64,000 nt of DNA from an uncultured bacterium (GTDB lineage: Bacteria; Babelota; Babeliae; Babelales; Babelaceae): positions 608,001-672,000 of the forward strand of contig OY970332.1 of assembly GCA_963717435.1 (NCBI GenBank), in the 5' to 3' direction. The notes beneath the pieces are model-generated. The model saw only the letters and a list, made by a program, of their open reading frames with translations, was not told where the DNA came from and did not search any database. Below are positions 14,084-60,480 of this stretch, one piece after another (position 1 is the first letter of the stretch; every line of letters starts with the position of its first letter). The translations under genes were made by a program, and so were the position numbers.

Positions 14084-14314
14084 CATCCCTCGTCGATACA
14101 CCCGTCACCTGATCCCGCGCTCGCCCTGAGTGTTTTTCGAACAAAGTGAGAAAAATGTATCGAAGGGTGCCAGACACAGCGGGACGAGCGGTATATAACC
14201 GCAACAACACGCCCAACTGACTAAGAATCAGAACTCAAAACTTAGATTAACACGCCGCTCGTCCCGAGTGTTTTTTAAGCGCATTGCGCGAAAAAAATGT
14301 ATCGAGGGATGCGG
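14084..14314. repeat. Family-A palindromic repeat cluster: minus unit 14084-14191 with nested plus unit 14118-14167, and plus unit 14255-14314
   Basis: CCGCTCGTCCCGAGTG...TGTATCGAGGGATG and its reverse complement; same ends seen in valS, prmC, gpmI, murE. Confidence 0.9.
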
Positions 14315-14316
14315 TG

Positions 14317-15513
14317 TTAAGTTAACTTATAAAATTTGTGTTTGCCCACTTTTAAGTGCATACCGTCTTTAAGATTAACCACAGCTTTAAAGTCAGTTAT
14401 TTTTTCACCGTTGAGCGTCACCGCTCCTGCTTCGATTAGTCTTTTTGCGTCAGAAGAGCTCATCTTGGGATCTAAAAATCTTAAAAAATCAACTATCCAA
14501 GTGGGTTTGTTTGCAAAATCTCCAAGTGCAATATACTCAGCGTGTTCGAAGCTTCCATCACGTTTCTGGAACAATTCTTCAAACGAGATTTTTGCCTCAT
14601 CTGCTTCAGGCTTTGACCAAAATCTTTCTACAATATCATGCGCCATAGATTTTTTTAGATCCATGGGATGTATTTTCCCTGAAGATATTTCTTGCTTCAT
14701 AGAAGCTATTTCTTTTTTTGTTTTATTTAATAATAACTCAAAATATGTCCACATAAGATCGTCAGAGATTGACATAAGTTTTCCAAAAGCAGAGTTTGCT
14801 GGCTCAAACAGGCCCACATAATTGCCATAAGATTTGGACATTTTTTGAACGCCATCAAGCCCAACCAATAGTGGCATAGTGATAACAACTTGGGGTTCTT
14901 GGCCGTATTGCTCTTGCAGATATCTTCCCATCAAATTATTAAAAGTTTGGTCAGTACCGCCAAACTCAATATCAGAATGTAGAGCCACAGAATCGTAACC
15001 CTGCATTAATGGATATAAAAGTTCGTGGAACCCAATTGTAACTTTTTCTTTTAATCTTTTTTCAAAGTCGTCACGCTCAATAATTCTTGAGAGAGTAACT
15101 TTGCCACAAAGTTTAACAAAATCTTTTATTGTTAATTTATCCAGCCATTCACTATTTCTTACTATTTTTGTTTTTTTAATATCTAATATTTTGCCAACTT
15201 GTTCTATGTAAGTTTTTGCATGCTCTTCAATTTCTTGTTCAGTCAGCGCAGGACGTGTTTTTGATCTTCCTGTTGGGTCGCCAATTCGAGCCGTAAAATC
15301 ACCAATAATTAAAATTATTTCATGCCCGTAATCTTGAAAAACTTTTAATTTAGAAAGCACAACAGCATGACCAAGATGTAAATCAGGAGATGTAGGATCC
15401 ATCCCAAGTTTAACTTTTAAGGGTTTGTTTTTAGCGAGTTTTTTTTCAAGTTCACCAGCGGGCAAAACTTCATGCGCCCCGGCGATCAATTTTTCCAAAT
15501 TTTGTTCTATCAT
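14317..15513 (-). CDS. tyrS: Tyrosine--tRNA ligase
   Basis: DPTSPDLHLGH, GGTDQ, KMSKS, C-terminal S4 domain. Confidence 0.97.
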   Translation of the reverse strand: MIEQNLEKLIAGAHEVLPAGELEKKLAKNKPLKVKLGMDPTSPDLHLGHAVVLSKLKVFQDYGHEIILIIGDFTARIGDPTGRSKTRPALTEQEIEEHAKTYIEQVGKILDIKKTKIVRNSEWLDKLTIKDFVKLCGKVTLSRIIERDDFEKRLKEKVTIGFHELLYPLMQGYDSVALHSDIEFGGTDQTFNNLMGRYLQEQYGQEPQVVITMPLLVGLDGVQKMSKSYGNYVGLFEPANSAFGKLMSISDDLMWTYFELLLNKTKKEIASMKQEISSGKIHPMDLKKSMAHDIVERFWSKPEADEAKISFEELFQKRDGSFEHAEYIALGDFANKPTWIVDFLRFLDPKMSSSDAKRLIEAGAVTLNGEKITDFKAVVNLKDGMHLKVGKHKFYKLT

Positions 15514-57615: not shown

Positions 57616-58965
57616 ATGAATCTTATGAATATTAACGTCGACCAGATAGACAGGCTGATACAAGCAACCAACGACTTTTTGTGGGGTTGGCCATTAATAA
57701 TATTTTTTGTTGGAGCGGGTCTTGCTGCAACTTATATGCTAAATTTTGTTCAGATAAGATATTTTGTGGCAAGCTGGAAGCTATTATTGTTTCCTGAAAA
57801 AAAGAACACAAATGGTCATATGACACAAACTCAGGCTTTTATTAATGCGCTTAATACAAGTATTGGTAACGGTAGTTTGGCTGGTATGGCAGTTGCTGTG
57901 AGTCTTGGTGGTCCAGGTGCAGCATTTTGGATCTTTGTACTGGGTATTTTTAGTTTGGTTATTAGATATTGCGAAGTTACATTAAGCAATATGTTTCCTG
58001 GAGCAGTTGGCAAAGATGGCGTTCTTGGTGGACCAATGGTTTACCTACAAAAAGTTCCGGGCGGAAAAGCTCTTGCTTATGGTTACGCATTTTTCTGCTT
58101 GATGCTAAGCTTTTTCAGCGGCAACTCTATGCAATGTAACTCGGTTAGAATAGCACTTCAGCGCGTAGTTAATATCGACACGACAATTATAGCTTTGATT
58201 CTTTTTGCTTTTGTAATTTACGTTATGCTTGGTGGAGCAAAAAGAATCATATATTTGTCCGAGAGAATAGTGCCAATAAAAGTTGGTTTGTTTTTCTTGA
58301 GCGCGATAATAATTATTGCTTATAATTATGCAGGCATATTTGATGCGTTAAAATTAATTGTTACAAGTTCATTTGGCTATGAACCATTGGTTGGCGGTGC
58401 GATCGGATATTCTATGATCGAGGCTCTGCGCTACGGTGTTTCTATACCATTAAATGCAACGGAAGCGGGACTTGGTACGGCTGCAATATTGTTCGGTTCA
58501 ACCGGTAGCAAGAGCCCTGTTGAAGATGGCATAATGTCTATGGTATCAGCTTTTATTAGTAATTATCTTGTTTGCTTTGTCTTGGCGTTTAGTTTCGTTT
58601 TAACAGGAGTTTGGAACTCTGGGTTGCCAAGTATAGCGATCACCGTTGCTTCTTATGAAACAGTTTTCGGTGCTTTTGGCGGCATGATTGTAACATTCTT
58701 GTCCGTAGCATTTGGTATTGGTGTATTGGTTTCTTATGTATTTATTGCCCGTGAATGTTGGTCATTTTTGACAAAGGGCAGATGGCTAACGGCGTACGCT
58801 GTTACTTACTGCTTATTTGCACTTGGCGGTACAGTTCTGGAAGCAAAAGTTGTTTGGAACTTTATAAACGTTGTTAATGCGGGTCTTTTGGCAATTAATC
58901 TTTATGCGATTGTTATGTTGTTGCCTAAGATTGCAAAAGAGCTTAAGGCTTACGAGAATAAATAA
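57616..58965 (+). CDS. Alanine/glycine:cation symporter (AGCS/AlsT family)
   Basis: IGNGSLAG, GGPGAAFW, GGPM.Y, EAGLGT. Confidence 0.92.
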   Translation: MNLMNINVDQIDRLIQATNDFLWGWPLIIFFVGAGLAATYMLNFVQIRYFVASWKLLLFPEKKNTNGHMTQTQAFINALNTSIGNGSLAGMAVAVSLGGPGAAFWIFVLGIFSLVIRYCEVTLSNMFPGAVGKDGVLGGPMVYLQKVPGGKALAYGYAFFCLMLSFFSGNSMQCNSVRIALQRVVNIDTTIIALILFAFVIYVMLGGAKRIIYLSERIVPIKVGLFFLSAIIIIAYNYAGIFDALKLIVTSSFGYEPLVGGAIGYSMIEALRYGVSIPLNATEAGLGTAAILFGSTGSKSPVEDGIMSMVSAFISNYLVCFVLAFSFVLTGVWNSGLPSIAITVASYETVFGAFGGMIVTFLSVAFGIGVLVSYVFIARECWSFLTKGRWLTAYAVTYCLFALGGTVLEAKVVWNFINVVNAGLLAINLYAIVMLLPKIAKELKAYENK

Positions 58966-58971
58966 CTAAAC

Positions 58972-60480
58972 ATGAAAAAAATATTTAAAGTTGCCTGTCA
59001 CACGGATAACGTGGGGGCAGGCACAACATTTGTTGCAATAAACGGAACAAAAGAAAACGGGAATATTTATATTCCCGTTGCTATTGAAAAGGGTGCCACA
59101 AAAATTGTTGTTGAATCTGGAAGTGAGATTCCTGAAAACATTCTTGAGTTAATTAAAAAATCTGGGGTTTTGTTTGAATTTGTAGAAAACTCTCGAAAAG
59201 CTTTGGCTGAAATCAGTGCCCGCGAATATAACTATCCTGCAAAAAAACTTAAAATTGTTGGTATTACGGGAACCAAAGGCAAAACGACAACAACTTTTTT
59301 AACGGAATTTATTTTAAGATCTTCTGGTTATAAAACTGCGCTATTGAGCACAGTTAAAAATATTATTCTGGGAGTAGAATATCCAACAAAACTAACCACT
59401 TGTCAGCCCGATTATCTTAATAATTTTTTACAAGAATGTGTTGATGCCGGTGTTGAAATTGTTGTTATGGAAGTCGCTGCTCAGGCATTTTCGCTTTATA
59501 GAGTTCATGGTATTGATTTTGAGATTGGCGTGTTTACCAATTTTAGCCAAGAACATGCAGAGTTTTACAGTTCAATGGACCAGTATTTTGCTGCAAAAGC
59601 GAAAATTATTGAGCATCTAAAGCCCGGCGCGCCATTAATAATTAACTCTGATGATTCTAAAGTTGCGACTTTAAAAAATAATTATAGTAACTGCTTTGAT
59701 TTTTCTTTAAGCCCCGATTCTTGTTCTAAACTATCTGCAAAAATAATTAAGTCTGATTTGTCCGGTTTGGAGTTGGAAATACTTGCTACCCCGATACATG
59801 CCAATTGTGTTGGATGTGATTGCGCATCTCGAGACCGCTCGTCCCGAGTATTTTTCGAAAGCGAAGCTGAGAAAAAAGTATCGAGGGATGGCGTCAAAAT
59901 AACCTCGCCGCTAGTTGGCAAATTTAACGCCCAAAATATTCTTGCAGCAACAAGTATATGTTTAAATTTAGGCTTAAATTTTGAGCAGATTAAATTGGGC
60001 ATAAAAAACTTTTCTCGCGTTTCAGGAAGACTTGAAAAATTTATTATAAAAAATGGCGCGACTGCGATTATCGACTACGCCCATAACCCAGCATCAATTG
60101 AGGCGGTTTTGTTGGCGCTAAGACCATTTTCAAAGCATTTGATAGTTCTTACAGGTGCCGGAGGTGATCGGGATAACACCAAGAGATCTGTAATGGGAAA
60201 AATATCTTCTGAAATAGCTGATATTTTAATTTTAACTTCTGATAATCCAAGATCTGAAGACCCAGAAAAAATTATAGATCAGATTATGCTTGGGGTTTCG
60301 CATGAAAATATTAAAAAAGTTTATCGTGAAACTGATCGTGAAAAAGCTATTAAACTAGCATATTCTCTTTCTGGCCCTGAAAGTACAATAGTTTTGCTTG
60401 GCAAGGGTCCTGATGAGTACCAGATTATTGGAAACACAACTTACCCATTTAGCGAGACAAAAATACTTGAGTCTTTGTAA
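58972..60480 (+). CDS. murE: UDP-MurNAc-tripeptide synthetase (meso-DAP type) with in-frame repeat insertion
   Basis: GITGTKGKTT, MEV, DYAHNP, GAGGDRD, DNPR. Confidence 0.93.
   Translation: MKKIFKVACHTDNVGAGTTFVAINGTKENGNIYIPVAIEKGATKIVVESGSEIPENILELIKKSGVLFEFVENSRKALAEISAREYNYPAKKLKIVGITGTKGKTTTTFLTEFILRSSGYKTALLSTVKNIILGVEYPTKLTTCQPDYLNNFLQECVDAGVEIVVMEVAAQAFSLYRVHGIDFEIGVFTNFSQEHAEFYSSMDQYFAAKAKIIEHLKPGAPLIINSDDSKVATLKNNYSNCFDFSLSPDSCSKLSAKIIKSDLSGLELEILATPIHANCVGCDCASRDRSSRVFFESEAEKKVSRDGVKITSPLVGKFNAQNILAATSICLNLGLNFEQIKLGIKNFSRVSGRLEKFIIKNGATAIIDYAHNPASIEAVLLALRPFSKHLIVLTGAGGDRDNTKRSVMGKISSEIADILILTSDNPRSEDPEKIIDQIMLGVSHENIKKVYRETDREKAIKLAYSLSGPESTIVLLGKGPDEYQIIGNTTYPFSETKILESL
59788..59891. 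repeat. Family-A unit (59835-59891, plus) with decayed inverted partner (59788-59835) inside murE
   Basis: CCGCTCGTCCCGAGTATTTTTC...GAAAAAAGTATCGAGGGATGG; partner ACCCCGATACA...CTCGAGAC. Confidence 0.9.

Follow-up and report, generated by a model that had tools for sequence, protein, structure and literature searches.

As described by Chenal et al. (2025, PMC11893778), the Ssn proteins consist of a single GIY-YIG domain, have a length of ~94 amino acids (CDD cd10448), bind NTS/SRM hairpins in single-stranded DNA (ssDNA) only and cut beside them. NTS/SRM repeats flank the ssn gene and exist in hundreds of copies across phyla, and the authors note that the NTS-ssnA-NTS layout is similar to that of an insertion sequence (IS). 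In N. meningitidis, 2% of NTS are found inside genes. CGTC-tagged repetitive extragenic palindromes (REPs), which include Neisseria dRS3 and the Rickettsia palindromic elements (RPEs) RPE-4 and RPE-6, also have intragenic copies, and no dedicated transposase was known for them when they were described (Di Nocera et al. 2013, PMC3733652). In-frame insertions of RPEs are summarised in a review (PMC10969869). The present analysis concerns a family of GC-rich DNA hairpins, 45-67 nt long, in an uncultured bacterium of the Babeliales, in the phylum Dependentiae. Copies of this hairpin (called the unit) are found in frame inside the valS, gpmI and murE genes and, as a weak copy, inside prmC, and a pair of units flanks a small GIY-YIG gene. 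The unit is probably the gene-less form of a two-unit plus GIY-YIG cassette, spread by the nuclease and surviving in genes where it is in frame. In the following, the window is the whole stretch of 64,000 nucleotides that was analysed (G000:C1:608001-672000), and G000 is its source genome, a single contig (C1) of 1,198,203 bp with 34.6% G+C.

The strict form of the motif, GCTCGYCCYGA-N(5,35)-TATCGARGG, matches the window at 5 places and has no match in 100 shuffles. When the gap is extended up to 60 nt, 79 strict matches are found in G000, 6 of them in the window. As a control, the pattern was read backwards, which gave 0 matches versus 77 for the pattern read forward. A looser pattern has 107 matches in G000 and only 4 in the reversed genome; 10 of these exceed 60 nt and were dropped, which gives a working set of 97 units. 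A covariance model (R1), built from 59 units and applied with at most 150 candidates scored per genome, has 110 matches in G000. In the window it finds six strong and two weak units (two further rows with E >3 are noise), and partial ends exist at ~51033-51049 and 59790-59833. An earlier note on this DNA had placed the motif at sites in the window and counted about ten copies including partial ones, and the pattern and model matches, together with the partial ends, agree with both statements. Eleven unit sequences are present two or three times, and the 97 units comprise 85 distinct sequences. A scan of the window against Rfam at the gathering threshold gave tRNA only, and at E up to 10 the region 14050-14350 has a single chance match to a long non-coding RNA.

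When units of G000 are aligned with those of high-GC genomes in other phyla, a common layout is seen. An outer stem, in which Y-C-C-Y pairs with R-G-G-R, is followed by an internal loop with an invariant GAGTG on the 5' side opposite TGTATCGA on the 3' side. The loop is bordered by conserved U.G and G.U wobble pairs. The distal hairpin is variable and often capped by a C-GNA-G triloop; in other genomes short forms of ~34 nt are found, in which the distal hairpin is nearly gone. The fixed ends described in the earlier note are indeed present, but the conserved ends extend further and include the outer stem, GAGTG ... TGTATCGA and the covarying Y/R positions. Among 59 distinct sequences from several phyla, 95.4% of cells are paired, compared with 70.0% in shuffles, and 210 cells are changed on both sides, compared with 61. 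The two Y-R pairs are CG 31 / UA 26 / UG 2 and UA 32 / CG 27, and in none of these sequences are they unpaired. The wobble pairs flanking the distal stem are U.G in 57 and G.U in 40 of the 59. Because of these conserved wobble pairs folding is strand-specific, with the given strand more stable than its complement in 76 of 79 copies. Therefore, the selected structure is that of one single strand, which could be ssDNA or RNA.

Units occur alone, in pairs and nested in one another. Defining an adjacent pair as two units within 300 bp, only 34 of the 97 units form such pairs (17 pairs, of which 12 are plus-minus, 3 are minus-plus, and 2 have both units pointing the same way), and all three minus-plus pairs are located inside open reading frames (ORFs). 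As many as 65 of the 97 have no other unit within 200 nt. The inverted pair, given as the usual form in the earlier note, is thus not typical of units other than the coding copies. Nesting, where a unit exists within the hairpin loop of another, is found in the window at 14079-14192 and in two other loci (L009 and L079). In the window, a full unit at 14116..14174 (+ strand, matched by the pattern and by R1 at E 9.5e-13) lies in the loop of a degenerate outer unit at 14079..14192 (- strand, R1 E 0.046). The window copy is intergenic, and the composite (family A) occurs 7 times in G000. A second full unit, at 14254..14316 (+, R1 E 1.2e-11), is also intergenic, between convergent genes, and abuts the 3' end of tyrS (14317-15513, -). 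In a cultured actinobacterium, Nocardioides sp. URHA0032 (L035, 71% G+C, ~4560-4670), the unit exists in a short tandem array.

Counting a unit as coding when it lies in a long ORF with at least 40 codons on each side, 27 of the 97 units are in frame within 23 long ORFs of G000. Since ORFs of at least 120 amino acids cover 85.5% of the genome, units are depleted about three-fold from coding DNA, which is far from exclusion. When 22 of the 23 unit-bearing ORFs were scanned against Pfam and NCBIfam, 18 had a family match and 4 had none. Most unit-bearing ORFs encode housekeeping enzymes. The matched hosts are ValS, GpmI, MurE, MurB, another Mur ligase, SufB/D, phosphoglucose isomerase, RecR, a phosphoribosyltransferase, a SpoU methylase, MnmG, transketolase, asparagine synthase, phosphoglucomutase, a glycosyltransferase, a heparinase-like protein, NurA, and MiaA. 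Each of the three sense frames is used, as are antisense frames (17 units sense, 10 antisense), and, depending on the frame, 40-86 of the 97 are free of stop codons. Units are also found in the leader peptides of two G000 pseudopilin genes (G000:C1:331732-331782 and 332764-332814; L171). These sit just before the prepilin cleavage motif, so that the extra residues would be cut off.

Four host genes are found in the window, and NCBIfam and TIGR family matches agree with the identities proposed for them earlier. valS (24866..27529, +, 887 amino acids; NCBIfam NF009687, E 1.8e-290) carries an antisense unit at 26701..26762 (-, R1), read as ..RSLDTTSQAGALSATRDERV.., and a sense unit at 26821..26887 (+, R1 E 6.4e-13), read as ..TPLVPSVLGSSERANKNVSRDGV... 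Between them, at 26763..26820 (+), the sequence reads as an AT-rich spacer, which would be part of the translated insert. In gpmI (50066..51694, -, 542 amino acids; TIGR01307 E 1.3e-163 in two stretches) there is a sense unit at 50941..50987 (-, pattern and R1 E 8.5e-08), read as ..IPLALNSPTGHIEG.., while part of another unit in the opposite orientation, its left end, can be read from the sequence at 51033..51049 (+) with no model match. murE (58972..60480, +, 502 amino acids; NF001126 E 3.7e-126) has a sense unit at 59834..59895 (+, pattern and R1 E 7.6e-12), read as ..DRSSRVFFESEAEKKVSRDGV.., next to a degenerate partner at 59790..59833 (-), again seen by reading the sequence and without a model match. 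The fourth gene, prmC (39357..40436, -, 359 amino acids; TIGR03534 E 1.6e-71 in two stretches), had been listed as another carrier of the motif, but its insert of ~58 residues (39687..39860, -) has no pattern match. It is a composite of a weak unit at 39760..39858 (+, R1 E 0.084 only) and a second GC-rich repeat module. This second module is unrelated to the main motif. It is found at ~39770-39800 in the prmC insert, at ~31430-31500 beside an IS copy (the second of the two described below), and at G000:C1 ~200000, 1022870, and 1065975, sites that are adjacent to tRNA genes or upstream of the GIY-YIG cassette.

As had been proposed, the inserts are specific to the lineage, and alignment with orthologs shows empty sites. 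The ValS insert is absent in all 19 relatives aligned (two of which have short unrelated extras), the MurE insert (amino acids 273-303) in 18 of 18, the PrmC insert in 11 of 11, and the GpmI insert in 6 of 7. The exception for GpmI is a TM6 metagenome-assembled genome (MAG; G006), which has a different and longer unit cluster at the same site, in another frame. Either insertion has recurred at a site that tolerates it, or an old insert was later remodelled. In the AlphaFold model of MurE, which has a mean predicted local distance difference test (pLDDT) score of 89.6, the insert loops out between two strands, and the only segments below 50 (residues 276-296 and 298-303) are within it, a low score that may partly reflect missing alignment rows. 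Two contig sets from moss metagenomes, which may be the same data deposited twice, each contain 0.06 of the sampled words, and in them a relative 90-99% alike covers 23 of 30 bins at low depth; no RNA data set containing the sequence was among the listed runs. One low-depth metagenome contig from such a 90-99% alike relative joins window position 26688 to 26890 and skips the 201-nt ValS insert; the intervening content is not seen in this contig, and the joined form would be shorter than the other orthologues. The proposal of a multi-copy, non-autonomous hairpin family adding peptide, 30-67 residues at a time, to intact essential enzymes in the manner of RPEs is supported. The further claim that the element is actively generating new protein sequence is at most hinted at, by the 11 repeated unit sequences and the one contig without the ValS insert.

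The earlier note had seen no candidate mobiliser in the window, and none is found there. Elsewhere in G000, ten ORFs located between unit pairs 0.3-4 kb apart were scanned, and one of them encodes a nuclease. It is a 132-amino acid ORF with a GIY-YIG domain (PF01541, E 2e-16, residues 42-113) and no other domain. Its likely product is a single-domain protein of 94 amino acids, encoded at G000:C1:1066108-1066392, with a plus unit on the 5' side (1066026-1066079) and a minus unit on the 3' side (1066413-1066467). This is the one intact cassette in G000 (G000:C1:1066026-1066467), and the check proposed in the earlier note, a GIY-YIG gene between copies of the repeat, thus succeeds. The nearest relatives of the protein with solved structures are the UPF0213 proteins 1zg2 and 1ywl (E 1e-14). 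An alignment of nine small GIY-YIG proteins shows Y7, Y17, and R27 to be invariant, as is E64 among the five of this type; we take these four residues to be the catalytic positions. The other ORFs between units encode VKOR, DoxX, a CNNM/CorC transporter, ribulose-phosphate epimerase, MurB, a WD40 protein, PAP2, a deaminase, and one protein without a family; none is a nuclease, and they were set aside as partners. Also rejected were three more small GIY-YIG genes of G000, since none is flanked by this unit. These genes (G000:C1:1023036-1023248, 413544-413759, and 200267-200425) are of another subtype, 79-82 amino acids long, and one of them contains a stop codon. A perfect hairpin, different in each case, precedes each gene, and two of the genes immediately follow tRNA genes.

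The association between the unit and the gene is also found outside G000. Among 102 motif loci from other genomes, 6 have a small GIY-YIG gene, and 5 of these genes are flanked on both sides within 136 nt, including one on a Nevskia contig of 69% G+C. The reverse comparison started from homologues of the nuclease and used the best 80 of at least 599 matched stretches, at least 584 of which encode a relative. These best 80 loci come from Dependentiae, Sphingomonadales, Gallionellaceae, Methylococcaceae, Nitrospirota, Dehalococcoidia, Thermodesulfobacteriota, Binatia, Legionella, and others, and their nucleases are 51-66% identical to the G000 protein. Model R1 matches within 150 nt of the gene on both sides in 31 and on one side in 31 of them, and the plus-gene-minus order is found in 25. 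This 150-nt zone is a tenth of the sequence and contains 107 of the 138 model matches. With the loose pattern and a distance of 300 nt, units are seen on both sides in 25 loci, on one side in 18, and on neither in 37. In 31 Babeliales genomes, G000 included, nine have 110, 118, 95, 55, 27, 23, 18, 17, and 8 units, one has a single unit, and 21 have none. The GIY-YIG gene (E < 1e-30) is present in 6 of the nine genomes with at least 8 units. Among the 22 genomes with 0-1 units it is found only in G013, where its flanks carry the short form of the unit.

These observations make the GIY-YIG nuclease the likely partner of the unit, rather than a REP-associated tyrosine transposase (RAYT), and the scheme we favour, with good but not full confidence, is as follows. 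The unit would be the gene-less form of a cassette consisting of two inverted units around the gene for the 94-amino acid nuclease. By analogy with Ssn, the nuclease would bind the folded unit in ssDNA and cut beside it. The breaks or fragments so produced would be copied or placed at new sites, loops of other units among them. Copies that come to lie in frame in tolerant surface loops would survive, because units are mostly free of stop codons, and would be translated as extra peptide in ValS, PrmC, GpmI, MurE, and ~19 other ORFs. Recognition of the folded unit in ssDNA by the nuclease, and spread of the unit through it, are suggested by the Ssn precedent, by the strand-specific structure, and by the linkage of gene and unit. 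Signs of mobility are the lineage-specific inserts, the nested copies, the patchy distribution among genera, the cross-phylum cassette, the repeated unit sequences, and the contig lacking the ValS insert. A more far-reaching form of this scheme is that the widespread small UPF0213/YhbQ-like GIY-YIG proteins are a second family of hairpin-guided ssDNA nucleases, separate from Ssn, with a near-universal recognition core (GAGTG/TGTATCGA within a covarying stem) kept from Dependentiae to Chloroflexi, Actinobacteria, and Proteobacteria, and that their cassette is an autonomous mobile element inserting into the single-stranded loops of hairpins and writing peptides into essential enzymes. We offer this only tentatively and think it rather doubtful as a whole.

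Several points weigh against nuclease-driven spread. GIY-YIG enzymes are hydrolytic nucleases with no obvious strand-transfer step. With only 11 recurring unit sequences and 85 distinct ones among the 97 units, much of the family may be old. Units show no bias between the replichore strands (53 versus 44, p = 0.42). Of the best 80 homologue loci, 18 have no model match near the gene. Two unit-bearing genomes, G005 (27 units) and G027 (17 units), lack the gene, and G013 has the gene without a model match. The genomes compared are kin, so that counts of association among them overstate independence. Activity, transposition, and expression of the system are predictions. Chenal et al. (PMC11893778) do not demonstrate mobility for Ssn either.

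Other explanations of the repeat were weighed on the same evidence. REP/REPIN elements (REPINs being REP doublets) are mobilised in trans by RAYT, an HUH Y1 transposase, and this was the route suggested by the earlier note. The inverted unit pairs and the mosaic combinations, which are similar to bacterial interspersed mosaic elements (BIMEs), would fit it. However, the Y1/RAYT family (PF01797) has 0 matches in the single-contig G000, while 6 of 14 control genomes match, the units have no terminal GTAG, and the gene found between inverted units encodes a GIY-YIG protein. A RAYT-driven origin is therefore very improbable. Even more remote is the idea that the units are MITEs (miniature transposable elements with inverted repeats) of an IS481-family insertion sequence, brought up by two nearly identical IS copies in the window (10239-11380 and 30285-31426, with a 342-amino acid transposase and their own terminal inverted repeats). 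These terminal repeats are unlike the unit ends and the units are hairpins of 45-67 nt not bounded by terminal inverted repeats, which rules out a MITE origin; the ends proved unrelated when both copies were aligned, and the IS481 element was rejected as mobiliser as well.

Two further explanations have a somewhat better standing, and both are unlikely. The unit may be a structured element conserved for a role at the RNA level (for example, an internal loop bound by a protein, an mRNA stabiliser or a terminator), whose linkage to the GIY-YIG gene is incidental. The conserved U.G/G.U wobbles and the folding of one strand would suit RNA no less than ssDNA, phyla share the conserved internal loop, and according to Di Nocera et al. 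many REPs work as RNA (PMC3733652). On the other hand, the unit matches no Rfam family, exists in both orientations inside genes (17 sense, 10 antisense) and in inverted pairs, and is tightly linked to a DNA nuclease gene across many phyla; moreover, SsnA did not bind RNA (PMC11893778). We give about the same small chance to a domesticated host system, in which units are marks on DNA through which the nuclease controls its recombination or uptake, a role proposed for NTS/SsnA in Neisseria, and the coding copies are old, fixed passengers. NTS/SsnA modulates transformation in Neisseria (PMC11893778), most units here have diverged, and a single intact gene is found with ~110 units, all of which would agree with such a role. 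Against it, the lineage is obligately host-dependent, the distribution among genera is patchy, the insertions are nested and lineage-specific, and the spread of the cassette across phyla points to a self-propagating unit. Domestication is nevertheless compatible with the favoured scheme of a nuclease-spread hairpin.

Some other features of the window are noted here. An ORF at 819-2108 (-), encoding 429 amino acids, contains four copies of a 141-nt-period tandem repeat (1076-1780), corresponding to 47-residue protein repeats; its sole family match is a weak one to 'choice-of-anchor B'. At 8865-9476 and 9507-10122 there is a ~640-bp tandem duplication, 78-88% alike, which encodes two paralogous ORFs of 168 and 169 amino acids without a family match. 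The UvrC ORF at 31487-32767 (-) is short, with 426 amino acids matched in two stretches to a 574-position profile. It ends adjacent to the second IS copy. On the far side of this IS lies an ORF that has no family match, and its being a continuation of uvrC is unsupported.

The finding links a long-standing puzzle, the palindromic inserts read in frame in reduced intracellular genomes (RPE-like elements), to a concrete partner gene, and does so in a phylum without an earlier report of either. It also suggests a second clade of tiny GIY-YIG nucleases with their own hairpin partner, whose core is conserved across phyla. If the nuclease turns out to cut ssDNA at specific sites and with a new specificity, the Ssn toolbox would gain a member. 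As for the 27 in-frame copies, they amount to a natural experiment on the tolerance of essential enzymes to inserted loops. For annotation, a repeat occurring across phyla explains many spurious small ORFs and odd insertions in proteins from MAGs. The family had been called possibly undescribed, which is only partly so. This kind of element is in print as RPEs, CGTC REPs, and Ssn/SRM, but the pair of motif and nuclease was not found in the papers searched. A literature search on palindromes, repeats and hairpins in Dependentiae and on peptide strings found neither this motif nor a partner of UPF0213 type described, in a coverage without the supplements to Chenal et al., where the clade or these genomes may be listed. 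PMC4776705 has 0 occurrences of palindrom-, mobile or transpos-.

Compared with REP/BIME/REPIN elements, the family here has similar hairpins, inverted doublets, and mosaics, with one protein gene between repeats. It differs from the REPIN-RAYT system in having neither a Y1 HUH transposase nor a GTAG head at the unit ends, and its partner is a hydrolytic GIY-YIG nuclease. The likeness to RPEs is in the palindromes of a reduced, AT-rich intracellular bacterium, which exist in frame in many unrelated housekeeping genes (PMC10969869). The host, however, belongs to another phylum, the unit is shorter than the ~150-bp RPE-1, and a partner nuclease gene is identified here. CGTC REPs are also short tagged palindromes, often dimers, found in several phyla with intragenic copies encoding 20-80 residues (PMC3733652). 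While their text describes an 8-9 bp stem starting from A-T pairs, a 4-5 nt loop, and a CCA-like tail, none of which is matched here, the distal stem of our unit starts from U.G/G.U and commonly ends in a GNA triloop, unlike the four CGTC families as described in that text. In addition, CG(T/C)C is here within a covarying stem (CG 31 / UA 26) and is not an unpaired tag like the terminal CGTC/TGTC/CCTC of those families.

The closest system is Ssn. Both have a ~94-amino acid protein with a single GIY-YIG domain, a gene located between inverted directional hairpins, tens to hundreds of gene-less copies, and a repeat core conserved across phyla, and in both the repeat-rich genomes are enriched for symbionts. 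The exact Neisseria NTS consensus is itself found in MAGs of many phyla (L269-L388; among others Dehalococcoidia, Planctomycetes, Verrucomicrobia, and Latescibacterota), an occurrence that parallels the cross-phylum conservation of the present motif. The differences are in the repeat and in the protein. The published SRM pattern (HGTCWY ... RNCYNB) matches 1 place in G000 and 0 of the 97 units, and the unit differs by an additional outer stem and by its conserved internal loop. A scan with the NTS pattern gave 120 loci with only 2 GIY-YIG genes, and the protein comparison used such an NTS-adjacent protein, fetched with the NTS consensus, and not N. meningitidis SsnA itself. To this NTS-adjacent protein the 94-amino acid protein is 34% identical, and UPF0213 structures match the G000 protein at E 1e-14 but the NTS-adjacent one at E 0.0095. 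While 2% of NTS in N. meningitidis are inside genes (PMC11893778), 27 of the 97 units here are inside ORFs. The architecture is thus shared with Ssn/SRM and CGTC REPs, while the motif and the nuclease differ.

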